This document shows, one piece after another, positions 2,603 to 63,272 of a DNA stretch of 64,000 nucleotides (position 1 is its first letter; every line of letters begins with the position of its first letter). A program made the translations under genes and the position numbers. The DNA lies in the NCBI GenBank assembly GCA_045807765.1, contig JBJMGU010000271.1, positions 1,200-65,199 of the forward strand, read 5' to 3'. The notes under the pieces are model-generated. The model had not been told where the DNA came from. It searched no databases and saw only the letters and a program-made list of their open reading frames with translations. The DNA is from Blastocatellia bacterium. Lineage in GTDB: Bacteria; Acidobacteriota; Blastocatellia; UBA7656.

Positions 2603-3079
2603 ATGTCGGGCCTATGCGACCGATGCAATGAAAAGACCAGCCATCTCGTAAACATCACGCGCGTGCAGGAACTCGCCGCCCTTGCGCAGCTTGGCTACCG
2701 CCAGGTCTGCACCGCCTGCTACGACGATCTGCTGGCCGAAGCCAGCGAAGTCGAGGACGCCGACGAAGATCGCCGCTCGGAACGGCGCGCCCAGGTCGCC
2801 ATCAAAGCGCGCGTCGAGGGCAACACCACGCACCTTGCGCCATTTGCTGAAGAGATGACTATCGAAGAGATCAGTCCATCGGGCCTGCGCCTGCACACCG
2901 GGCGCGACATCGAGCCGGGCACCGTGCTGAAAGTCAGCGTGCCGTCATACGATTTTGACGTCACGGCCATCGTTGAAGCCGTCTGGCGCGATGGCGGCGA
3001 GCACAAGGTCGGACTCAAGCTCGTCGAGCCAAGCGAAGGCTGGCAACAATTGTGGAACGATAACGCGCCGGAAGAGTAG
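2603..3079 (+). CDS. PilZ-domain protein (putative c-di-GMP binding) with an N-terminal CxxC...CxxC zinc ribbon
   Basis: The N-terminus carries CDRC...CTAC (two CxxC pairs). The C-terminal half has PilZ-like RxxxR and D-x-S-x-x-G motifs (RRSERR ... DISPSGLRLHTG) followed by a beta-rich segment. Confidence 0.55.
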   Translation: MSGLCDRCNEKTSHLVNITRVQELAALAQLGYRQVCTACYDDLLAEASEVEDADEDRRSERRAQVAIKARVEGNTTHLAPFAEEMTIEEISPSGLRLHTGRDIEPGTVLKVSVPSYDFDVTAIVEAVWRDGGEHKVGLKLVEPSEGWQQLWNDNAPEE

Positions 3080-3186
3080 GGACTAGGGACTAGGGGCTAG
3101 GGGTGTGAGCGAAAGCCAGCGTCTAAAACCAGCCAGTGTTGAGACCAAATAGTGCCTCTTTATCCTAGCCCCTAGTCCCTAGCCCC
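3080..3186. repeat. Long intergenic inverted repeat whose stem is built from tandem GGGACTA/GGGGCTA heptamers
   Basis: Left arm gggactagggactaggggctagggg (3080-3104); right arm cctagcccctagtccctagcccc (3165-3186). The arms are reverse complements with a stem of about 20 bp and a loop of about 60 nt. It lies between the PilZ gene stop (3079) and the thrC start (3210). Confidence 0.6.
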
Positions 3187-3209
3187 TTCCCTCTGCTACC
3201 CTTCCTGCG

Positions 3210-7589: not shown

Positions 7590-9203
7590 ATGAAGACTCC
7601 AGACCTGGTTTTGAAACGTGGGATAATCTATGACGGCACAGGCCGCCCGCCTGTAACTGGCGACATCGGCATCTTTGGTGACTCCATTCAGGCGATTGAC
7701 GCCGCAGGCGCGCTGCACGGCGCGGACGAGATCGATTGCCAGGGCTTGAGTATCGCGCCCGGCTTCATCGATACGCACAGTCACTCGGACATCCGCGTTC
7801 TGACCGAGCCGCAGTTGCCGATGAAAGTCCGCCAGGGCATCACGCTTGAAGTCTTCGGCCAGGACGGCTTGTCGGTCGCGCCCATTCGCCGCGAGGATCG
7901 GCGGCAGGTGGCCGAGCAGCTCGCCGGCCTTGACGGCAGCCTCGATCACGAGTGGGAGTGGCATACGGTCGCCGAATACCTTGAGGCCATCGAGCGGGCG
8001 CGGCCTTCGCTCGACTGCGCTTACTTGATTCCGCACGGTCAGGTGCGGCTCTACGTGATGGGCATGGAAGACCGCCGGGCAACCGTCGAAGAAATCGCCG
8101 CCATGCAGCAACTCATTCGCGAAGCGATGCGCGATGGCGCGCTGGGATTGTCAACCGGCCTGATCTATCCACCCTGTTGTTATGCGGACACCGCTGAATT
8201 GATCGAGCTGGCGCGCGCGGTCGCCGAATTCGACGGCGTCTTCGTCGCGCACATGCGCAGCGAGAGCGATTACATCGAAGACTCTGTGGCCGAGATGATC
8301 GAGATCGGCCAGTCTGCCCAGGTGCGCGCTCACATCTCGCATTTCAAGATCGCCGGGCGCGAGAACTGGCCGCGCATCAATACGGTGCTCGAGATGATTC
8401 ACGCAGCGCAGGTGGCGGGCCTGCGATTGACTGCCGATCAGTATCCTTACATCGCCGGCTCGACTATGCTCAGCGCCATGCTGCCGCCGTGGGCGCACGC
8501 CGGCGGCGTCAAAGCAACGCTGGCGCGGCTGGTCAGTGCGGACGAGCGCCAGCGCATGCGGCGCGAGATGTTCGACCGCAGCCCGGCGCACTGGGACAAT
8601 TTCTGGAAGTGGTCAGGCCCCGAAGGCATCATCGTCTCTGACATCCCTTCGGGCAATCACCCTGAATACGTGGGCAAGAACCTTGCCGAAGCCGCCGCTC
8701 TGGCGCAACAGGCCGAGCAGGTCAGTGAAGAGGCCGCAATGGAGTTTGCGTTTGACTTGCTGGCCGCAGAGCGCCTGGGCGTCGGCATGATCAGCTTTAG
8801 CCAGTCGGAAGAGGTTGTCCGCAAGATCATCACGCAGCCTTACGTCAATGTCTGCACCGACGGCTTGCTCGGCGGCAAACCGCACCCGCGCGCTTACGGG
8901 ACGTATCCGCGCATCCTCGGTCGCTACGTGCGCGAGCAGAAGCAAATTTCACTTACGGAAGCGGTGCGCAAGATGACGGGGCTTGCGGCAGAGACCTTTC
9001 AGTTGAAACGTCACGGCGTGATCGCCGAGGGCCGACGGGCGAACCTGGTCGTCTTTGACGCCGCGCGCGTGATTGACACCGCGACGTTTAGCGATTCGCG
9101 GCAATACCCCGAAGGCATCGATCACGTTATTGTCGCCGGCCAGCCGGTGATTCGCGACGGCCAATCTTACATCGAAGGCAGCGGCACGGCCATCAAGCGA
9201 TAA
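7590..9203 (+). CDS. N-acyl-D-amino-acid deacylase (D-aminoacylase), amidohydrolase superfamily
   Basis: Amidohydrolase metal-binding motif GFIDTHSHSD and the overall ~540 aa D-aminoacylase architecture. The start is ambiguous among 7536, 7581 and 7590. Confidence 0.8.
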   Translation: MKTPDLVLKRGIIYDGTGRPPVTGDIGIFGDSIQAIDAAGALHGADEIDCQGLSIAPGFIDTHSHSDIRVLTEPQLPMKVRQGITLEVFGQDGLSVAPIRREDRRQVAEQLAGLDGSLDHEWEWHTVAEYLEAIERARPSLDCAYLIPHGQVRLYVMGMEDRRATVEEIAAMQQLIREAMRDGALGLSTGLIYPPCCYADTAELIELARAVAEFDGVFVAHMRSESDYIEDSVAEMIEIGQSAQVRAHISHFKIAGRENWPRINTVLEMIHAAQVAGLRLTADQYPYIAGSTMLSAMLPPWAHAGGVKATLARLVSADERQRMRREMFDRSPAHWDNFWKWSGPEGIIVSDIPSGNHPEYVGKNLAEAAALAQQAEQVSEEAAMEFAFDLLAAERLGVGMISFSQSEEVVRKIITQPYVNVCTDGLLGGKPHPRAYGTYPRILGRYVREQKQISLTEAVRKMTGLAAETFQLKRHGVIAEGRRANLVVFDAARVIDTATFSDSRQYPEGIDHVIVAGQPVIRDGQSYIEGSGTAIKR

Positions 9204-10032
9204 TCAGCCCGGCGTACTGGTCTACGAGTGGCATGACGGTGTCGCGGTCGGCAGGCGGCAGCATCAGGATAGCGCGCTCGACGCCAATGGCTTCGAGTTG
9301 ATCCAGGGCTTCGCGCTCGGGCTTCGCGCCAAAGATGGTAATCGAAATCGCCTGCGGGTCACGGTCCGCCTCTTCAGCGCGGCGGCGCAACTCAGCGATC
9401 TTTTCAGCCAACCCCTCCAGGCGATAACCGATTGGCATCCAGCCGTCACAGAACTCGGCCACGTAATCAAACGTCTTGGACGCAAATCCGCCCATGAAGA
9501 TCGGCGGGTGGGGCTTCTGCACAGGCTTCGGGTATGACCAGACGGGATCGAAGTTGACGAAGCGCCCGTGGAACTCGGCTTCCTCTTTCGTCCAGATCTC
9601 TTTCATCGCCAGCACGCGCTCGCGCAGCAGGCTGAAGCGCGTCTTGTAGGCGGTGCCGTGATTTTCCATCTCTTCAGCGTTCCAGCCAGCGCCGATGCCG
9701 AAGATGAAGCGCCCGTTCGACAGCCGGTCGAGACTGGCGACCTCTTTGGCCGTCGTGATGGGATCGCGCTCGATGATCAAACAGATGCCGGTCGCAACCT
9801 TGAGCTTCGTGGTGACGCTTGCCGCCGCCGTCAGCGCGACGAACGGGTCATAGGTGTGCCAGTACTCTTTCGGCAAATCGGTGCCGCCGGGGTAAGGCGT
9901 GCGGCGGCTTGCGGGAATGTGCGTGTGTTCGGGAACCCAGAGCGATTCAAAGCCGCGCGCTTCAAGCTCGCGCGCCAGATCGTCCGGGCGCATCGCGTAA
10001 TCGGTGGAAAACATGCCGGCGCCGTAAAGCAT
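9193..10032 (-). CDS. LLM-class F420-dependent oxidoreductase
   Basis: Luciferase-like family sequence: ...GFESLWVPEHTHIP...GICLIIERDP.... Start at MLYGAGMFST, with GGAGG 5 nt upstream. Confidence 0.8.
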   Translation of the reverse strand: MLYGAGMFSTDYAMRPDDLARELEARGFESLWVPEHTHIPASRRTPYPGGTDLPKEYWHTYDPFVALTAAASVTTKLKVATGICLIIERDPITTAKEVASLDRLSNGRFIFGIGAGWNAEEMENHGTAYKTRFSLLRERVLAMKEIWTKEEAEFHGRFVNFDPVWSYPKPVQKPHPPIFMGGFASKTFDYVAEFCDGWMPIGYRLEGLAEKIAELRRRAEEADRDPQAISITIFGAKPEREALDQLEAIGVERAILMLPPADRDTVMPLVDQYAGLIIA

Positions 10033-10100: not shown

Positions 10101-10181
10101 GGAACCACAGATGAACACAGATGAACACCGATAGAAATCTTTTCTTCTTATCTGTGTTCATCTGTGTTCATCTGTGGTTGC
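10101..10181. repeat. Palindromic intergenic element, copy 1: stem built of tandem ACAGATGAAC units (MITE/REP-like)
   Basis: ggaaccacagatgaacacagatgaacaccgata - loop (gaaatcttttcttctta) - tctgtgttcatctgtgttcatctgtggttgc. This gives a ~28 bp stem with one mismatch. The ends are shared with copy 2 at 27146-27222. Confidence 0.7.
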
Positions 10182-10187
10182 TTTTCC

Positions 10188-11060
10188 TTAGGCTACTGTT
10201 TCAGCGAGCGCGACTTCCGTGGGTTCGGCGGCGCGCGCGAAGATGGCACCTTGATAGAGCGCCGCCATCAGCCAGCAGCACGCGAACGTCCACAGCAGGT
10301 ACTGCTCGACGAACGTGGCCGCAGGCTTCGACCATCCCGACAGCAACGCCAGCGCCAGGAACGAACCGTCGCGCGCCACGCCCGCTACGACGACCATGTT
10401 CCAGACGCGCGCCACCGCGCCGCCGCCCATCTGCGAGGCGTAGCGGCGCACGACGATGCACAGCGACGCAATGACCGCGCCCACCGAAACGGCCACCAGC
10501 CGGTAGACCATCATGTAACCGTCCGGATTGGCGATGGCGGCCCGAATCAGATTGCCGCGGAAGATGAAGGTCACCACCGGCAGCGCGCACAGCGCCACGA
10601 CGTAGAAGTAATCTATGGGCAGCAGCTTGAAGGGCAGCCCCGTGCTCTTGTACGAGCGGATAGTGGTCAGCAGCGCGCCGACAAATAGCACATCGCTTGC
10701 GGTGTAGAGGTAGCGCAGCACGACGATGTAAAAGAACAGCGCCGCAGAAGCGCCCTCGTGATACTCAGGCAGAAGATTGAACGAGAGCGTCAACAGTCGG
10801 GCTTCGGCCACCAGGCGGACGGTCATAAAGACGACGATCAGCGTCCAGGTCACGTAGCCTGGATCGCCCGCCGCAAACGCCCGGCGGGCGCGGACGAACT
10901 GCGCCACGGCGAAGACCTCGACCAGCACGGTCGCGGCAAACAGCGTCAAGGTCACGGCGGTGCCGGCGGCGGCGCCTTTCAGGCTCATGGCCGCGGCAAA
11001 GATCGCCGGAAAAATCACGAGTGAGAAGACGAACGGCTTGACCAGAGATTTTGCGCTCAT
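10188..11060 (-). CDS. Polytopic integral membrane protein, function unknown
   Basis: 290 aa with about 8 predicted hydrophobic helices and good coding bias. A small ORF (11065-11295) lies 5 nt upstream. Confidence 0.6.
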   Translation of the reverse strand: MSAKSLVKPFVFSLVIFPAIFAAAMSLKGAAAGTAVTLTLFAATVLVEVFAVAQFVRARRAFAAGDPGYVTWTLIVVFMTVRLVAEARLLTLSFNLLPEYHEGASAALFFYIVVLRYLYTASDVLFVGALLTTIRSYKSTGLPFKLLPIDYFYVVALCALPVVTFIFRGNLIRAAIANPDGYMMVYRLVAVSVGAVIASLCIVVRRYASQMGGGAVARVWNMVVVAGVARDGSFLALALLSGWSKPAATFVEQYLLWTFACCWLMAALYQGAIFARAAEPTEVALAETVA

Positions 11061-25604: not shown

Positions 25605-26273
25605 ATGCGGTGGATCACTCAGCAGGCAAGCGACATTTACGATTCTCTGAAGCAATCAAGCCCAGCGGCAAGGCGCGTCATTGCCAGCACCCTTTCTCCG
25701 GCCCTCCTCATCGCGGCGCTCACTGTCTCGGCGACGACAGCCGCATCCGCGCAACCGAACTCGGATTCGCGAGCGGTTAAGCATTCCCGCTTTGACACCG
25801 CCAGGATCAATGAGCCGGTGGTCAGAGAATTCAACAACGCCTGGCAGAGTGTCGGCTGCGGCGTTCTAAATACAGAAATCGTCGTCTTGATCTTCAAGAA
25901 AGCTGATGGCGCTTACATGGCGGCTTCGCTGGGCATGTCCAACGAGAGTAAGCAATTCAGCTTTGTCTGGAATCCGGCGACGATAGCCCTTGTGCACACC
26001 CACCCGAACACTTGTAACGAACGACCGAGCTGGCCGGACAGGGATATCGCCGATAAGTACCACGTGCCAATCCTCACGATTACTTCCAGAGGCATGTTCA
26101 TGTATGACCCGGAAACGAAGAAGATCAGCAAAGTGCAGGACGGCCTCAATTGGCTCAAGCTCGACAAGTGGGCGCGGAATTCATTGGTTGCTCAGGCCGC
26201 GGCTGCCGCGCCGTCGGTCAGCATCTCCATGAACTTGCGCGCCGCGGCGCTGAAGATCTTCCCTTTGCGGTGA
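25605..26273 (+). CDS. Secreted hypothetical protein with a JAB/MPN (RadC-like) metal-binding motif
   Basis: Signal peptide ...ALLIAALTVSATTAASAQP. The motif HTHPNTCNERPSWPD resembles the JAMM/RadC pattern HxHP-x5/6-PSxxD. It lies in a low-GC patch. Its 3' end overlaps the convergent lysR-type gene by about 80 nt. Confidence 0.5.
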   Translation: MRWITQQASDIYDSLKQSSPAARRVIASTLSPALLIAALTVSATTAASAQPNSDSRAVKHSRFDTARINEPVVREFNNAWQSVGCGVLNTEIVVLIFKKADGAYMAASLGMSNESKQFSFVWNPATIALVHTHPNTCNERPSWPDRDIADKYHVPILTITSRGMFMYDPETKKISKVQDGLNWLKLDKWARNSLVAQAAAAAPSVSISMNLRAAALKIFPLR

Positions 26274-27085
26274 ATGATGCCGATGGGGCGCAGGAAGGTG
26301 TCGTTAAACTCGATGGCCCGCAATGCCCCCGAACGCAGCTCGTTTTCGACGGCGGCGCGCGGGATGATCGTCACACCGAGGCCGGCTTCGACCGAGCGCT
26401 TGATGGTCTCGATGTTGTCGAATTCCATGACGTACTGCACCGTGGCGTCGTTGTCGCGGAGGATTTTATCTACCGCCTTGCGCGAAGACATATCGCGCTC
26501 GAAGCCGACGAAGTGCTGACCGCCAAGGTCGGCAACCGCCAGCCGCTTGCGCCGCGCCAGTTCGTGCTCCGGGCTACAGACAAAAACCAGCCGGTCGCTG
26601 CGGAAAGGGATGATATCGATCTGCGGGCGCGGCACCGGGTAAGCAACGATGCCGAGGTCTATCGTGTGGTTAATAACATCTTCGTAGACTTTGTTGGCGC
26701 GGCTGTATTCGATGTGGATGTTGGCGTGCGGAAACTCTTTGATGAACTGTTTGACGACTGGCGCTAGCTCGTGCAGGCCGACTGTGTAGATCGTCGCGAC
26801 GCGCACCTGGCCGCTGATCGTGTCGCCCAGCCCCTTCATCTCGTCGTTGAGCGAAGTGAAGCGCTCGATGATCTCGCGGCAGCCTTGATAGAAGGTCAGG
26901 CCGGCGGGCGTCGGCACCAGTCCGCCGCCGCGACTGCGCTCGACCAGGCGCTTGTCAAAGCGGTCTTCGAAAGCGCGCACCTGCTGGCTGACCGCCGACT
27001 GCGAGATGAAATTCTTGACCGCCGCCTTCGAGAAACTGCGCGTGTCAATCAAGTCGCAAAACACTTTGAGCGATTCGATATGCAT
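26192..27085 (-). CDS. LysR-family transcriptional regulator
   Basis: N-terminal HTH MHIESLKVFCDLIDTRSFSKAAVKNFISQSAVSQQVRAFEDRF and a ~300 aa LysR substrate-binding fold. Confidence 0.9.
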   Translation of the reverse strand: MHIESLKVFCDLIDTRSFSKAAVKNFISQSAVSQQVRAFEDRFDKRLVERSRGGGLVPTPAGLTFYQGCREIIERFTSLNDEMKGLGDTISGQVRVATIYTVGLHELAPVVKQFIKEFPHANIHIEYSRANKVYEDVINHTIDLGIVAYPVPRPQIDIIPFRSDRLVFVCSPEHELARRKRLAVADLGGQHFVGFERDMSSRKAVDKILRDNDATVQYVMEFDNIETIKRSVEAGLGVTIIPRAAVENELRSGALRAIEFNDTFLRPIGIIHRKGKIFSAAARKFMEMLTDGAAAAA

Positions 27086-27145: not shown

Positions 27146-27222
27146 GGAACCACAGATGAACACCGATGGAAGGATCAGCGTGAAACTCTCCGCCTTCTCC
27201 ATCGGTGTTCATCTGTGGTTGC
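27146..27222. repeat. Palindromic intergenic element, copy 2 (same family as 10101-10181), in the divergent lysR/MFS promoter region
   Basis: ggaaccacagatgaacaccgatggaagga - loop - cttctccatcggtgttcatctgtggttgc. Stem about 24 bp. The terminal 16-mers GGAACCACAGATGAAC / GTTCATCTGTGGTTGC are identical to copy 1. Confidence 0.7.
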
Positions 27223-27251
27223 TTCTTCTCTGGCTTTGCTAGAATGCATAA

Positions 27252-28586
27252 ATGCAAGAGAGCAGGCCGGGCCGAAAGGTTGGATACGTCGAGCTGTTGC
27301 GCGGCAATCGCCACTTTCGGCGGCTGACGATTGGCCGGCTGATCTCGCAGACCGGCGACTGGTTCAACAGCGTCGCCCTCTTTACCCTGCTCTTGAACCT
27401 CACGGGATCGGGCGAAGCCATCGGCCTCGTCCTTATCATCAAGCTGCTGCCGCAATTTCTGGTCGGGCCGCTGGCCGGCGTCGTCGCCGACCGCTTCAAC
27501 CGCAAAGCCATCATGATCTGGGCCGACTTGCTGCGCGGGGTGCTGGTCTTCGGCTTTCTCTTCGTCAATCGCCCCGAACAGGTGTGGATCGTTTATCTGC
27601 TCGCGGGGCTCGAAATCATCCTCTCATCTTTTTTTGAGCCTGCCGAATCTGCCGCCGTGCCGACGATTGTCAAGCGCGAAGAGTTGATCGCCGCTAATGC
27701 CCTGAGCGGCGCAACCTGGTCACTGACGCTGGCCTTCGGCGCAGCACTGGGCGGCGCGGTGACCGACCTCTTCGGCAGAAATACCGCTTTCGTCATTGAC
27801 GCTATTTCGTTCTTCATCTCTGCCGCCTTCATCTGGGCGACGCACATTCCGCCGCTGCCGAAACGCGAGCGTGACAGCGCCCAGCGCATGTCGTGGCTTG
27901 AGCTGACCGGCATCGCCGACATGATCGAAGGCGCGCGGTATTTGAAGACTAACCCGCACGTCATCGCTCTGCTGCTGGTCAAGAGCGGCTGGGGGCTGGG
28001 CGGCGGCGTGCTGTTGTTGCTGGCCATCTTTGGCCGCGAGATATTTCCGATGGGACATGACGGCAGCGCGTCGATTGGCTTGCTCTATGCGGCGCGCGGC
28101 ACGGGAGCGCTGCTCGGGCCGATGATCGCCACATGGATCACCGACGATTCGCCGCGCCCAATGCGCCGCACGATCAGCATCGCCTTTTTTGTCTCGGCCA
28201 TCTTCTACCTGTTATTCTCGGGCTCGCCGTCGCTCGTGCTGGCGCTGCTGTTCGTCATCGGCGCGCACGCGGGCGGCAGCACCCAGTGGGTCTTTTCGAC
28301 GACGCTGTTACAACTGGCGGTGCCGAATCGTTTCCTCGGTCGCGTCTTCGCGCTAGAGATGGGCTTTCTGACGCTGGCGATGTCGCTGTCAACTTACGTG
28401 ACCGGCTGGGGCATAGACCACGCCGGCCTGAGCGCCCGACAGATGGCCGCCTGGCTTGGCGCGGCTTTCCTGATACCGGGGCTGGCGTGGCTGGCCTTGC
28501 AACGCCAGCTTGATCGCTGGGAACAGAACGAGCGCGGCGCGCTTCTACCCACCACAACCATCGCCGATCAAGAGAGCGCACCCTGA
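27252..28586 (+). CDS. MFS transporter
   Basis: 444 aa with about 12 TM segments and typical MFS loop motifs, e.g. GPLAGVVADRFNRK. Confidence 0.85.
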   Translation: MQESRPGRKVGYVELLRGNRHFRRLTIGRLISQTGDWFNSVALFTLLLNLTGSGEAIGLVLIIKLLPQFLVGPLAGVVADRFNRKAIMIWADLLRGVLVFGFLFVNRPEQVWIVYLLAGLEIILSSFFEPAESAAVPTIVKREELIAANALSGATWSLTLAFGAALGGAVTDLFGRNTAFVIDAISFFISAAFIWATHIPPLPKRERDSAQRMSWLELTGIADMIEGARYLKTNPHVIALLLVKSGWGLGGGVLLLLAIFGREIFPMGHDGSASIGLLYAARGTGALLGPMIATWITDDSPRPMRRTISIAFFVSAIFYLLFSGSPSLVLALLFVIGAHAGGSTQWVFSTTLLQLAVPNRFLGRVFALEMGFLTLAMSLSTYVTGWGIDHAGLSARQMAAWLGAAFLIPGLAWLALQRQLDRWEQNERGALLPTTTIADQESAP

Positions 28587-28752
28587 ATGGGGAAGCCAGC
28601 CACAGGCCATGCAAGAAGCCGTGGCGTCGGCATTCAATCCATGCAGTCAACAGAGTAAACGGCTGCCGGCTCCGGCATGGATAACAGACCGGAGAGAGAA
28701 GAAACAACCAGCGATATTCAGCTATCGGCCCGTGCAGTTCAGGAGAGAGTCA

Positions 28753-30957
28753 ATGAGATTCAGGTTACTTGCTGTGCTTGGGTTCGTTCTTTTTATGGGC
28801 GGTGCCGCCTTCGGCCAGGGGGTCATCATCCCCGACGAATGCCACCGCTGCCCGCCGCTGCCCCACCCGCTGCCGCAACCGCTGCCACGCGTCCTCAACG
28901 TCAAATCGGTAAAGATCACTACAAAGATCGATTCGCAGGTAGCGACGACGAAAGTCGAACAGGTCTTCGAGAACCCGTCGCCTTACCGGCTCGAAGGCGC
29001 TTACTTCTTTCCCATCCCCGAGAGCGCTTCGATCTCGGATTTCGCCATCTATGACGGCGACAAGCGCATGGCCGCAGAGATCGTTGAAAAAGCGCGCGCA
29101 CGGCAAATCTATAACGAGATTGTCCGCCGGCAGATCGATCCCGGCCTGCTCGAATACGTCGGCAAAGACCTCTTTCAAGCGAGCGTCTTCCCCATCGAGC
29201 CGCGCTCGACCAAGAAGATCGAGCTGACCTATTCGCAGGTGCTCAAGAGCGAAGGCGGCACCGTCAGCTACCGTTATGATCTGGGCTCAGGCCGCCGCAT
29301 TCAGCCATCGCCCATCAAAGAGATTGCCGCCTCGGTCGAGATCAACTCGCCGATCGATCTGAAAAACATCTTCTCGCCGTCGCACAAAATCTCCATCACT
29401 CGCGACGGCGAGCGACGAGCGCGTTTGAGCTTTGAAGGCGTCGGCGCTGACACGCAAAAAGATTTCCTGCTCTATTACTCGCTATCGGAAAAAGATTTCG
29501 GGCTGTCGCTGTTGACCAACCGCGAGCCGGGCAAAGACGGTTACTTTTTAATGCTGGTTTCGCCGAAGTCGAACATTGCCGATCAGGAGCGCCTGGCGAA
29601 AGACATCGTCTTCGTGCTCGACACCTCGGGCTCGATGAGCGGCGAGAAGATAGACAAGGCGAAGGCGGCTTTAAAGTTCGGCGTCGAATCCTTAGGCGAG
29701 CGCGACCGTTTCAACGTCATCTCGTTTTCCGGCGAAGAACATCTGATGAAAGCCGGCTTGATCCAGGCCGACCGCGCTGGCAAGCAGGCGGGCGTGAAAT
29801 TCATCGATAACCTGCGCGCCGAAGGTGGCACCAACATCAACGACGCGCTGATCGCCGCGCTCAAACAGTTTCAATCCGCCGAGCGTCCGGCAATGGTGGT
29901 CTTTCTTACAGACGGCCTGCCGACGGTCGGCCCCACAGACGTCAAAGACATCGTCCGTAATGCCGCCGGCGCCAACCGCGCCAATGTGCGGCTGTTCACC
30001 TTCGGCGTCGGCTATGACGTGAACACCAACCTGCTCGACAAGCTGGCGGCGGACAATCGCGGCGTCAGCGATTACATCGAGCCGCAGGAAGACCTCGAAA
30101 TCAAAGTCTCGAACTTCTTCGCGCGCGTCAACTACCCGGTGTTGTCGGATCTGAAGCTCGACTTCGGCGGCGTCGAAGCCGAGCTGCTCTACCCGCGCAC
30201 GCTCGGCGATCTGTTCAAGAACTCGCAACTGGTGATCGTCGGGCGCTATAAGAACAATGTGAGCGCCGCCACCATCCGCCTGACCGGCAAGGTCGGCAAC
30301 CGCGAAGAGACGTTTACTTTCGCGGGTCAGCAGTTTCCCGCCGAGCGCAGCGACAACGCTTTTCTCGGGCGGCTGTGGGCGACGCGGCGTGTCGGCTACC
30401 TGCTCGAACAGATTCGCCTGAACGGCGAGAACACGGAAGTCAAAGACGAGATCATTCAGCTCGGCACGCGCTATGGCATCGTCACGCCGTACACATCTTT
30501 CCTGGTGACTGAAGACATGAAAGACATCGGCAGGATCAGGCGTCCTGGCGAGCCGCTGCCGCCGCCGTCAGCCCGGCGCGCGCTTGACGCCATGACCAAG
30601 GCTGCGCCCGCCAGCGATTCCGGCTTTGAGGGCACGGGGGCGCGACAATCGAGCGGCGAATCGGCAGTCGTCTACAGTCAGGCCGAAAAGAAGATGAAGG
30701 AATCGGACAAAGTAGACAGCCCCGATTCGTACCTGATGAGTGTTCGCACCGTCGCTGACAAGACCTTCAAGCTCAAAGGCGACGAGTGGGTGGACACCGA
30801 GTTCAAAGACACAGGGGCGCTGCCGCAGGTCAACCTGCAATTCGGCAGCGACGAATTCTTCAACCTGATTGCCAAAGAGCCGAAGCTCGCCGAGTACTTT
30901 GCGCTCGGCAAGAAGGTCACGGTCGTCTACAAAGGCAAGGTCTATCGCGTGACATAG
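28753..30957 (+). CDS. Secreted VIT (vault/inter-alpha-trypsin) plus von Willebrand factor A domain protein
   Basis: Start MRFRLLAVLGFVLFMGGAAFG (signal peptide), AGGAGAGAG upstream. MIDAS motif VFVLDTSGSMSGEKIDKAKAAL. The N-terminal VIT-like region precedes the vWA domain. Confidence 0.8.
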   Translation: MRFRLLAVLGFVLFMGGAAFGQGVIIPDECHRCPPLPHPLPQPLPRVLNVKSVKITTKIDSQVATTKVEQVFENPSPYRLEGAYFFPIPESASISDFAIYDGDKRMAAEIVEKARARQIYNEIVRRQIDPGLLEYVGKDLFQASVFPIEPRSTKKIELTYSQVLKSEGGTVSYRYDLGSGRRIQPSPIKEIAASVEINSPIDLKNIFSPSHKISITRDGERRARLSFEGVGADTQKDFLLYYSLSEKDFGLSLLTNREPGKDGYFLMLVSPKSNIADQERLAKDIVFVLDTSGSMSGEKIDKAKAALKFGVESLGERDRFNVISFSGEEHLMKAGLIQADRAGKQAGVKFIDNLRAEGGTNINDALIAALKQFQSAERPAMVVFLTDGLPTVGPTDVKDIVRNAAGANRANVRLFTFGVGYDVNTNLLDKLAADNRGVSDYIEPQEDLEIKVSNFFARVNYPVLSDLKLDFGGVEAELLYPRTLGDLFKNSQLVIVGRYKNNVSAATIRLTGKVGNREETFTFAGQQFPAERSDNAFLGRLWATRRVGYLLEQIRLNGENTEVKDEIIQLGTRYGIVTPYTSFLVTEDMKDIGRIRRPGEPLPPPSARRALDAMTKAAPASDSGFEGTGARQSSGESAVVYSQAEKKMKESDKVDSPDSYLMSVRTVADKTFKLKGDEWVDTEFKDTGALPQVNLQFGSDEFFNLIAKEPKLAEYFALGKKVTVVYKGKVYRVT

Positions 30958-30971
30958 ATCGCCGGCACAGG

Positions 30972-31070
30972 AAATGATGAATGATGAATGATGAACGATG
31001 AATTAGGGAGACCAGTCCCATTGCGGTGGGCGCAAGCTCCGGCAGTTCATCATTCATCATTCATCATTTG
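30972..31070. repeat. Intergenic hairpin with a stem of tandem ATGATGA heptamers
   Basis: aaatgatgaatgatgaatgatgaacgatgaa - ~40-nt loop - ttcatcattcatcattcatcattt. The core stem is 24 bp perfect. It lies between the vWA gene stop and the purD start. The ORF-track 30988 'MMNDE' start is an artefact of this repeat. Confidence 0.6.
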
Positions 31071-38378: not shown

Positions 38379-38470
38379 TGAAGCGAAGCGATGAGTGATG
38401 AACGGATGTGATGACGGCAGGCATCTCGCCGCCTGCCTTCCCGCAATTCATCACTCATCGCCCATCATTA
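38372..38470. repeat. Imperfect long hairpin rich in GATGA units between convergent genes
   Basis: aaatgatgaagcgaagcgatgagtgatgaacggatgtgatgacggcaggc / gcctgccttcccgcaattcatcactcatcgcccatcattatttt. There is a central ggcaggc...gcctgcc stem, and gatgagtgatgaa pairs with ttcatcactcatc. Confidence 0.5.
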
Positions 38471-62174: not shown

Positions 62175-62259
62175 ATTGGTTTAGGCATCCACGAATGACA
62201 CGGAGGAGCAAAGCAGAAAGCCGGGTTCGCGTCCTTCGTGTCATTCATCGAGTTGCTGT

Positions 62260-62512: not shown

Positions 62513-62580
62513 CGGATGTAGCGCAAGGCGGTTAGCTCGCGTGAGTCTCTGCGCAAGCTAACCGCCTTGCGCTACATGGT
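62513..62580 (-). terminator. Strong 23-bp perfect inverted repeat immediately downstream of the NifU-like gene
   Basis: ggatgtagcgcaaggcggttagct - cgcgtgagtctctgcgca - agctaaccgccttgcgctacatgg. It lies 15 nt after the NifU-like gene stop (62595). There is no clear U-tract. Confidence 0.55.
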
Positions 62581-63146: not shown

Positions 63147-63262
63147 TCAGAATTCAGAAGTCAGGAGCCAGAAGTCAGAATGAATTTGGAAGGCGCGATA
63201 AGCGGACTCGCTGCCGCCGACTTCCTTGTTTATTCTGACTTCTGACTTCTGGCTCCTGACTC
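63147..63262. repeat. Intergenic hairpin with stem built of CAGAAGT(CAG) units
   Basis: gaattcagaagtcaggagccagaagtcagaatgaa ... ttattctgacttctgacttctggctcctgactcc. About 26 bp of pairing. It lies between the hydrogenase large-subunit stop and the NifU-like gene start. Confidence 0.6.
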
Positions 63263-63272
63263 CTTTCTTCTT

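Follow-up and report, generated by a model that had tools for sequence, protein, structure and literature searches.

The locus and its two hairpins

The window analysed here is a stretch of 64,000 nucleotides (64 kb) from a Blastocatellia bacterium, and our subject is a pair of short inverted repeats within it that fold into hairpins, copy 1 at 10101-10181 and copy 2 at 27146-27222. The arms of both hairpins are tandem arrays of 10-nt units, and arms of the same family enclose a small gene of the GxxExxY family in other bacteria, where arms and gene together form a cassette. The parts of the two elements are listed below, followed by the host genes beside them (ORF, open reading frame; MFS, major facilitator superfamily).

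10101..10181: copy 1, gene-less foldback hairpin (5' arm 10103-10133, loop 10134-10148, 3' arm 10149-10179)
10107..10126, + strand: tandem ACAGATGAAC decamers of the copy 1 5' arm, with their complements at 10156-10175
10182..10187, + strand: short pyrimidine-rich tail after copy 1, reaching up to the stop codon (10188-10190) of ORF 10188..11060(-)
27146..27222: copy 2, gene-less foldback hairpin (5' arm 27148-27170, loop 27171-27197, 3' arm 27198-27220)
27223..27232, + strand: pyrimidine-rich tail after copy 2, which together with the last two hairpin bases reads GCTTCTTCTCTG
10188..11060, - strand: upstream host gene (290 amino acids, no Pfam domain), the insertion context of copy 1 and outside the element
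9193..10032, - strand: luciferase-like monooxygenase gene, with its ATG at 10032
26192..27085, - strand: LysR gene, the divergent neighbour of copy 2
27252..28586, + strand: MFS transporter gene with copy 2 in its 5' leader/promoter region, host context and outside the element

A reading made earlier from the sequence alone (the sequence-only reading) had described a near-perfect hairpin of ~80 bp at 10101-10181, and that hairpin is present, its 15-nt loop lying between 31-nt arms with 97% complementarity. The same reading had placed a second copy at 27146-27222 with the same termini and another interior, which we can confirm: the ends of the two copies are identical over 18 nt, their loops are unrelated, and copy 2 has 23-nt arms that are 100% complementary around a 27-nt loop. 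Its description of the stem as tandem decamers also stands. Each arm of copy 1 holds two exact ACAGATGAAC decamers and a degenerate third unit, and each arm of copy 2 holds one decamer plus ACCGATGGA, i.e., copy 1 equals copy 2 with one additional decamer per arm. Copy 1 has the termini GGAACC... and ...GGTTGC, and on the + strand the 5' end of copy 2 is ATGGAACC, as found in gene-bearing cassettes. The decamers at 10107..10126 (+) have an ATG in each unit, giving a mini-ORF that reads MNTDEHR and then stops.

The 16-mer GGAACCACAGATGAAC occurs exactly at 10101 and 27146 and, with one mismatch (GCAACC...), on the opposite strand at the 3' arms of both copies. Allowing up to three mismatches gives five matches in the window, compared with 0.41 expected. 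The likeness between copies is limited to the arms, about 24-25 nt per side, and the flanks and loops are unrelated, so a local segmental duplication is excluded. The sequence-only reading had named a local duplication, combined with a 16-mer confined to these two places in the genome, as what would count against a dispersed element; the copies have nothing in common outside their arms.

Folded as RNA, copy 1 reaches -53.5 kcal/mol (z = -11.6) and copy 2 reaches -50.5 kcal/mol (z = -9.45), both relative to dinucleotide shuffles. The elements have a GC content of 41-53% overall and stems of 23-31 bp. Rfam gave no matches in the whole window at gathering thresholds, and permissive thresholds returned just generic miRNA-hairpin models, far below threshold.

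Each hairpin is followed by a short pyrimidine-rich tail. At copy 1, the tail plus the final two hairpin bases reads GCTTTTCC, and this sequence is missing from the relatives' orthologous spacers when they are aligned. At copy 2, the tail resembles the sequence after the 3' arm at two family loci (L125 and L044; loci compared with the window carry L numbers here), and it belongs to the element because it is missing together with the hairpin from a 96%-identical relative, L206.

The ORF map bears out the sequence-only reading's placement of copy 1 between two co-directional minus-strand genes. The 290-amino-acid protein encoded by 10188..11060(-) matches an NCBI MAG (metagenome-assembled genome) protein at 100%, which assigns the window to a Blastocatellia (Acidobacteriota) MAG. 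The stop codon of 10188..11060(-) lies 6 nt from the hairpin end (10181) and 8 nt from the paired stem, and the luciferase-like monooxygenase gene starts 68 nt beyond the hairpin on the minus strand. Copy 2 lies in the LysR/MFS divergent region, 29 nt upstream of the MFS ATG. A position shortly after a co-directional upstream stop codon therefore describes copy 1 and not copy 2. Neither hairpin is followed by a U- or T-run on the gene strand, and the transcribed strand past copy 1 reads CCACUUUGCUG.

Distribution of the arm family

We scanned genomes, one per species (596 Gb), for the shared 14-mer CCACAGATGAACAC and obtained at least 120 loci. By a rough estimate, about 4,400 matches to a random 14-mer are expected in 596 Gb, so single matches mean little. 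However, 89 of the 120 listed loci have tandem CACNGAT units at the match, and at least 58 hairpins with a partner arm at two or fewer mismatches are found among them. Their hosts include Planctomycetota (Phycisphaerae, Planctomycetia, Brocadiia), Acidobacteriota (Blastocatellia, Pyrinomonadaceae, Chloracidobacterium, Bryobacterales), Verrucomicrobiota, Chloroflexota, NC10, Nitrospirota, Gemmatimonadota (Gemmatimonadales) and Gammaproteobacteria, the last including Wenzhouxiangella isolates. The same arms occur in at least 10 bacterial phyla.

The arms follow a common plan of tandem ~10-nt units with the consensus CRCAGATGAA, bounded by (T)GGAACC and GGTTCC(A). The window arms match the tandem-unit plan of GxxExxY-cassette arms, and their outer boundary is the family's with one mismatch, since both copies read GGAACC...GGTTGC (with ATGGAACC at copy 2). 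Judged by sequence, the window hairpins are thus members of the cassette's arm family. Loops in this family range from about 10 to more than 200 nt with unrelated sequences, and the stem is often prolonged into variable yet complementary A-rich/T-rich flanks. Crude gene calls, which give rough counts only, place most members between co-directional genes, 10-50 nt past a stop codon. Other members of the hairpin class have units of 7, 8 or 9 nt.

Among the 14-mer matches listed for viral contigs, 20 of 120 had tandem units, a lower share than the 89 of 120 from genomes, so phages are not the main setting of the element. GxxExxY genes are uncommon on plasmids, with 8 records.

Gene-bearing cassettes

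Six of the approximately 89 listed family loci are gene-bearing. At these (L013, L028, L060, L069, L080 and L120), a distance of about 400-550 nt separates the arms, which enclose an ORF of about 125 amino acids, for a full-length unit of ~0.45 kb. The ORFs of L028, L060 and L120 match PF13366 (PDDEXK_3) with E about 1e-41, those of L060 and L120 also match TIGR04256 ('GxxExxY protein') with E about 1e-43, and those of L013, L069 and L080 matched a GxxExxY profile made in this analysis. The ATG of the cassette gene is within the 5' arm, where ATGAACACAGATGAACACAGA reads MNTDEHR, and the 3' arm comes after the stop codon.

An independent set of 80 metagenome loci was fetched by protein similarity alone, without the arm sequence. 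In about 60 of the 80, the gene is bracketed by tandem ~10-nt-unit inverted repeats which read AACC[G/A]CAGATGAAC... on one side and ...GTTCATCTG[C/T]GGTT on the other. Under a strict unit definition, two or more units are present on at least one side of the gene in 51 of 71 usable loci, versus 21 of 554 control windows. Arms exactly of the window type occur at L127, L170 and L175, and those of L127 (GGAACCACAGATGAACACAGATGAACACAGATTAA / ...CTGTGGTTCC) are nearly identical to the window arms. Between family arms, in about 1.2 Mb of loci, we found no cargo other than GxxExxY, barring host genes that lie between separate outward-facing hairpins.

The cassette proteins have a median pairwise identity of 0.52, and the arm units keep the CRCAGATGAA consensus. 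Coding cannot explain this conservation because successive units lie in different reading frames, and the pattern suggests that selection acts on the arm sequence itself. Some cargo genes (L127, L137 and L156) are pseudogenised, i.e., broken by stop codons.

Arrangements are more varied than a single cassette plan. At L138 (1094-1650) and L163 (1422-1500), GxxExxY genes do not sit inside one hairpin; complete gene-less hairpins stand to one side of them or to both, and the order of the arms is reversed.

The cargo protein

GxxExxY/PDDEXK_3 is a very large family: in one search, 7944 of 8000 candidates had E <= 1e-10. Catalogues list it as a family of unknown function that has been transferred horizontally many times (PMC3424549). 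A 40-sequence alignment gave a confident AlphaFold2 model, with a pLDDT (predicted local distance difference test score) of 92.9 and a minimal PD-(D/E)XK fold. D71, E81 and K83 are invariant, as are the E and Y of the GxxExxY motif, and the proteins conserve the D...ExK catalytic residues.

No solved homologue was detectable by sequence. By structure, the nearest is Cas4 (4ic1; E = 1e-3, template-modelling score 0.54), with further matches to a lambda-exonuclease-like enzyme and the AddAB nuclease complex (4ceh) and weak matches to Holliday-junction resolvases. On the strength of the model, the GxxExxY protein is probably an active nuclease.

Gene-less copies derived from gene-bearing cassettes

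One locus contains both forms of the element side by side. L212, which is the same locus as L210, L211 and L213, has three tandem cassettes: one gene-bearing and two reduced to gene-less hairpins. The gene-less loops retain the first ~35 nt of the ORF past the arm (AATAGCGATGCGGTAAGTGCGCTGTCTCGC vs AATAGTGACCAGGTAAACGCCCTCTCGCAC) and the last ~15 nt ahead of the 3' arm. Since both ends of the ORF region are kept, these two hairpins are internal-deletion derivatives, and at the level of sequence gene-less hairpins can therefore arise from gene-bearing cassettes in this way. An identical-protein look-up (P0273, 19 contigs) showed that all places are this one locus with its tandem gene-bearing/gene-less array.

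L212 and L213 also have, at 1494-1877, an inverted second copy of the 127-amino-acid GxxExxY gene which overlaps the 3' end of the first, at the ends of ~2-kb contigs. Fold-back at the hairpin during assembly probably produced this inverted copy as an artefact.

Turnover at orthologous sites

Relatives share the synteny around both copies, so we could compare what lies at the copy 1 site (site 1) and the copy 2 site (site 2).

Site 1, window: decamer hairpin
Site 1, L201 (84% protein identity): different hairpin with GATGAAT heptamer arms
Site 1, L203/L204/L205 (80-81% protein identity): unrelated 42-nt spacer, no such hairpin
Site 2, window: decamer hairpin in a 166-nt intergenic region
Site 2, L206 (LysR 96%): 88 nt, AGCAAAG-CTGTGG-TTTCAAAAG, with 6 nt of the 3' arm left
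Site 2, L209 (LysR 92%): GATGAAT-unit hairpin with arms matching window 30972-31069 and an unrelated loop
Site 2, L208 (LysR 92%): degenerate decamer-like sequence
Site 2, L207 (LysR 92%): unrelated GC-rich DNA

The CTGTGG remnant in L206 indicates a deletion at site 2, and the distribution among relatives requires at least one gain or type switch per site. These alignments thus show rapid loss and replacement of hairpins between close relatives.

The heptamer hairpin whose arms recur nearly unchanged in L209, and to which the site 1 hairpin of L201 is related, lies in the window at 30972-31069, past the stop codon of ORF 28510..30957(+), and has 25-nt GATGAAT-unit arms (100% complementary) and a 48-nt loop. 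L206 has about 550 nt of other palindromes in the same position. At L206 4956-5513, small GC-rich REP-like (repetitive extragenic palindromic) palindromes (AGCCCGCTTCAGCGGGCT, CCAGCGCTTTTAGCGCTGG and others) sit in large nested inverted repeats, and they are a different palindromic repeat family in the same lineage.

A related difference is seen at 9193-9203 in the window, where the convergent luciferase-like and amidohydrolase genes overlap. L203 (4325-4441) and L205 (4321-4478) have a spacer of 117-158 nt at this point, in which an outer stem of the GATGA type surrounds a hairpin built of CGCAGAG/CGCAGAAGG units. This spacer and the original stop codon appear to have been deleted in the window, fusing the gene ends.

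Downstream of LysR, the relatives have variable genes with TIR_2, nSTAND1/AAA_16, Uma2 and RNase_H domains at 11269-16946 in L206 and 2959-4894 in L207 and L209. These may be a defence-type island beside a hairpin hot spot.

Interpretation

We consider it probable that the window hairpins are gene-less ('solo') copies of the GxxExxY cassette, i.e., MITE-like (miniature inverted-repeat transposable element), non-autonomous foldback copies. This agrees with the sequence-only reading in that they are a dispersed element and not a private terminator: copy 2 is in a divergent promoter region, the family is present in many genomes and relatives vary at both sites. That reading's label of 'MITE/REP-like' survives in part. 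Gene-less hairpins do share their inverted-repeat ends with a longer gene-bearing element, but there is no target-site duplication and no known transposase. 'REP-like' in the strict sense does not apply, as the arm is a tandem array with no REP palindrome and no GTAG head.

Under this interpretation, the window copies would have lost coding capacity and would persist or spread as non-autonomous copies. Template switching at quasi-palindromes is an established mechanism, and intra-strand switching in folded single-stranded DNA may be what keeps the arms nearly perfectly symmetric; we invoke it because the arms are symmetric despite the two copies having different unit numbers. The arm sequence may be what the cassette nuclease, or else a conserved host factor, recognises as its substrate, which we propose because units of the same family are found again in cassettes with proteins that share only about 52% identity. 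To the host, the copies would act only as transcribed stem-loops, copy 1 between cistrons and copy 2 in the MFS leader.

Several results weigh against this interpretation. A profile scan found no GxxExxY ORF in the 64-kb window, no gene remnant was detected in the 15- and 27-nt loops of the window copies, and no GxxExxY remnant was detected in the loops of mid-size hairpins among L001-L120. The deletion origin was seen only in L212 and is extended to the window copies by family membership. Had whole elements recently been copied and pasted, the loops of copies in the same genome would be expected to resemble each other, but they are unrelated. The compared sites offered no dated or clean insertion, the clean comparisons being of loss or replacement. 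No target-site duplication was seen in the flanks of either copy or in comparison with L206; the sequence-only reading had named this check, and no direct repeat flanks either copy. Nor was a clean empty site found, as the site 1 spacers are unrelated. Arm mismatches comprise 41 of G.U type and 42 of A.C type with no sense-strand bias; given this symmetric spectrum, nothing singles out sense RNA as the selected form. Finally, the polarity of the window copies is ambiguous. A purine-rich leader would point to minus-strand polarity for both, but full cassettes have outer flanks that are palindromes in their own right, and the + strand has an (A)TGGAACC head and GGTTGCTTCT tail like those of L125 in its sense orientation.

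The main rival makes the same family assignment and reverses the direction. The hairpin would be a primary landing pad, the GxxExxY gene a homing-type invader and the window copies uninvaded targets; the nuclease would cut the apex of the folded hairpin, with the gene copied in by repair via shared-arm homology. Gene-less hairpins do far outnumber gene-bearing ones (the six of about 89 listed family loci noted above), both forms have identical arms, most gene-less loops contain no gene remnant and the cargo is, from its modelled fold, apparently an active nuclease. Hairpins nested within hairpins further suggest that loops are insertion targets. For example, L021 (4565-5174) has GAGTCAG-heptamer arms around two tandem decamer cassettes, and L027 (783-1360) has CGCAAAT-type arms, with the 5' arm triplicated, around a CACAGAT-type hairpin. 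However, both ends of the ORF region survive in the L212 gene-less loops and point to deletion and not to an empty site, the spread of the hairpins themselves is left unexplained, and the nearest fold is an end-processing nuclease (Cas4/RecB-like) and no known homing endonuclease. We regard the landing-pad explanation as unlikely, albeit worth keeping in mind.

A second alternative casts the hairpins as cis-elements of the host, whether intrinsic terminators, 3' stem-loops that stabilise mRNA or RNase III sites, which evolve in place by slippage and owe their likeness to convergent selection. In its favour, the crude gene calls put most family members 10-50 nt past a stop codon with co-directional genes on either side, the window has several other 3'-end hairpins, and relatives lacking the large hairpin show a small GC stem at site 1. 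The stems are also long perfect duplexes, and long perfect duplexes of double-stranded RNA are the kind that RNase III cleaves. Yet copy 2 is in a divergent promoter region or 5' leader, copy 1 has no U-tract after it (CCACUUUGCUG) and the sense strand lacks a G.U bias. Identical 14-30-nt arms are shared by at least 10 phyla and also surround GxxExxY genes, for which convergence is implausible. This alternative is therefore improbable.

Less probable still is a classical MITE of an insertion sequence with a DDE transposase, or a REP/REPIN (REP doublet forming hairpins) moved by a REP-associated tyrosine transposase (RAYT), with GxxExxY as a passenger effect. The terminal inverted repeats, small size, several copies and intergenic positions would all suit it. 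Against it are the missing target-site duplication at either copy, arms that are tandem arrays and not palindromic REP units with a GTAG head, GxxExxY as the only cargo between family arms in about 1.2 Mb of loci, and a stem that runs into variable complementary flanks with no fixed termini.

We give similarly little credence to the arms being helically phased sites for a conserved DNA-binding protein, with operator-like hairpins: a 10-bp period matches one turn of the helix, conservation is higher in the unit sequence than in the cargo protein and copy 2 is beside the LysR/MFS promoter, but other class members have 7-, 8- or 9-nt units, the sites are dispensable in a 96%-identical relative and no common class of neighbouring gene was seen.

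Further candidates were rejected. A Rho-independent terminator does not fit hairpins with no T-run on the gene strand, stems of 23-31 bp, 41-53% GC and a copy 2 away from any 3' end. An integron attC site (R''/R' RYYYAAC / GTTRRRY) does not fit ends of GGAACCACAG / CTGTGGTTGC flanked by ordinary host genes in conserved synteny. On inspection, the sequences also do not match the DnaA box, parS, LexA, Pho box, CsrA or the DNA uptake sequence.

Returning to the solo-copy interpretation, a new class of mobile element is a realistic possibility for the parent cassette. A fuller proposal, which we put forward tentatively and consider less likely than not to hold in all its parts, is that GxxExxY cassettes are an unrecognised class in which a minimal Cas4/RecB-like nuclease, encoded in the loop of a hairpin with tandem 10-nt recognition units as arms, moves or copies the cassette, via a folded hairpin or cruciform, into hairpins or post-stop sites, leaving many gene-less hairpins across at least 10 phyla. 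The heptamer- and nonamer-armed hairpins of the same genomes would then be sister families.

Relation to known systems

MITEs are the closest comparison. Like them, the element is short, non-coding and multi-copy, its inverted-repeat ends are the same as those of a longer gene-bearing element, and internal deletion connects the two forms (L212). Unlike them, the element here has no target-site duplication, its full form encodes a 125-amino-acid PD-(D/E)XK nuclease and no known transposase, its arms are tandem 10-nt arrays and loops in the same genome are unrelated.

REP/REPIN sequences are dispersed extragenic palindromes, often at gene 3' ends, for which movement in trans by a single-copy RAYT gene has been proposed. 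A REP unit is an imperfect palindrome of 20-40 nt with a GTAG-like 5' tetranucleotide, and units form inverted doublets. The resemblance lies in dispersed, extragenic palindromic repeats that form hairpins. However, the window elements have neither the GTAG-type head nor the doublet structure, and the associated PD-(D/E)XK nuclease gene is inside the hairpin and has many paralogous copies.

Drosophila foldback transposons have long inverted repeats of short tandem units, variable arms and heterogeneous centres. Inverted arms of tandem units, variable arm length and a heterogeneous centre are all shared with our hairpins, but only as an architectural analogy, as foldback transposons are eukaryotic, far larger and unrelated in sequence.

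A fourth comparison is with the intervening sequence (IVS) of 23S rRNA that carries an S23p ORF, where terminal inverted repeats form a stem around the ORF and RNase III excises the element. The Coxiella burnetii 23S rRNA IVS is described as a selfish element of ~430 nt with a small ORF of unknown role (PMC4990558). The cassette resembles it as a small selfish element carrying a small ORF. They differ in that the window elements are outside rRNA and have tandem-repeat arms, and in that the cargo of their family is GxxExxY as opposed to the four-helix-bundle S23p.

The GxxExxY family itself (TIGR04256 / PF13366) is the cargo of the full-length element, and the window copies are without the gene. 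We found no published description of a hairpin flanking GxxExxY or of gene-less derivatives, although the searchable literature is incomplete and a prior description is possible. The arm sequence as an exact string had no match in the literature, and searches for GxxExxY, PDDEXK_3, PF13366 and TIGR04256 gave catalogue mentions only.

With a GxxExxY gene inside a hairpin, its ATG in the arm and gene-less hairpins widespread, the GxxExxY/PDDEXK_3 family gains a concrete, testable context: a selfish foldback cassette. Its protein becomes a candidate for a nuclease that is structure-specific and has a defined substrate of DNA or RNA. The gene-less hairpins litter intergenic regions of soil and sediment bacteria in many phyla, and they account for a class of intergenic hairpin that could be mistaken for terminators, REPs or small RNAs. 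The comparison of relatives also brings out intergenic hot spots which evolve fast and could be used as strain markers. The key point, the link to the GxxExxY cassette and the spread across phyla, is one that the sequence-only reading could not reveal.

Other hairpins in the window

Other hairpins with tandem-unit arms are present in the window, in addition to the one at 30972-31069. At 3073-3192, a TAGGGAC-heptamer hairpin has 29-nt arms (90% complementary) and a 62-nt loop; the TAG stop codon of ORF 2603..3079(+) is within its 5' arm and the next + strand gene runs from 3210. A CAGAAGT/CAGGAGC-heptamer hairpin lies between co-directional minus-strand genes at 63149-63271, and a GATGAGT/GATGAAC-unit hairpin lies between convergent genes at 38388-38461. 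Period-7 units which contain TGA or TAG place stop codons in all three frames.

A small minus-strand ORF is flanked by two further hairpins. The one at 62188-62251 is built from CACGAATGA/CACGGAGGA units, in the style of the CACGAA-type arms in L004, L052 and L058, and the one at 62516-62577 is a 26-nt non-tandem palindrome with 96% complementarity.

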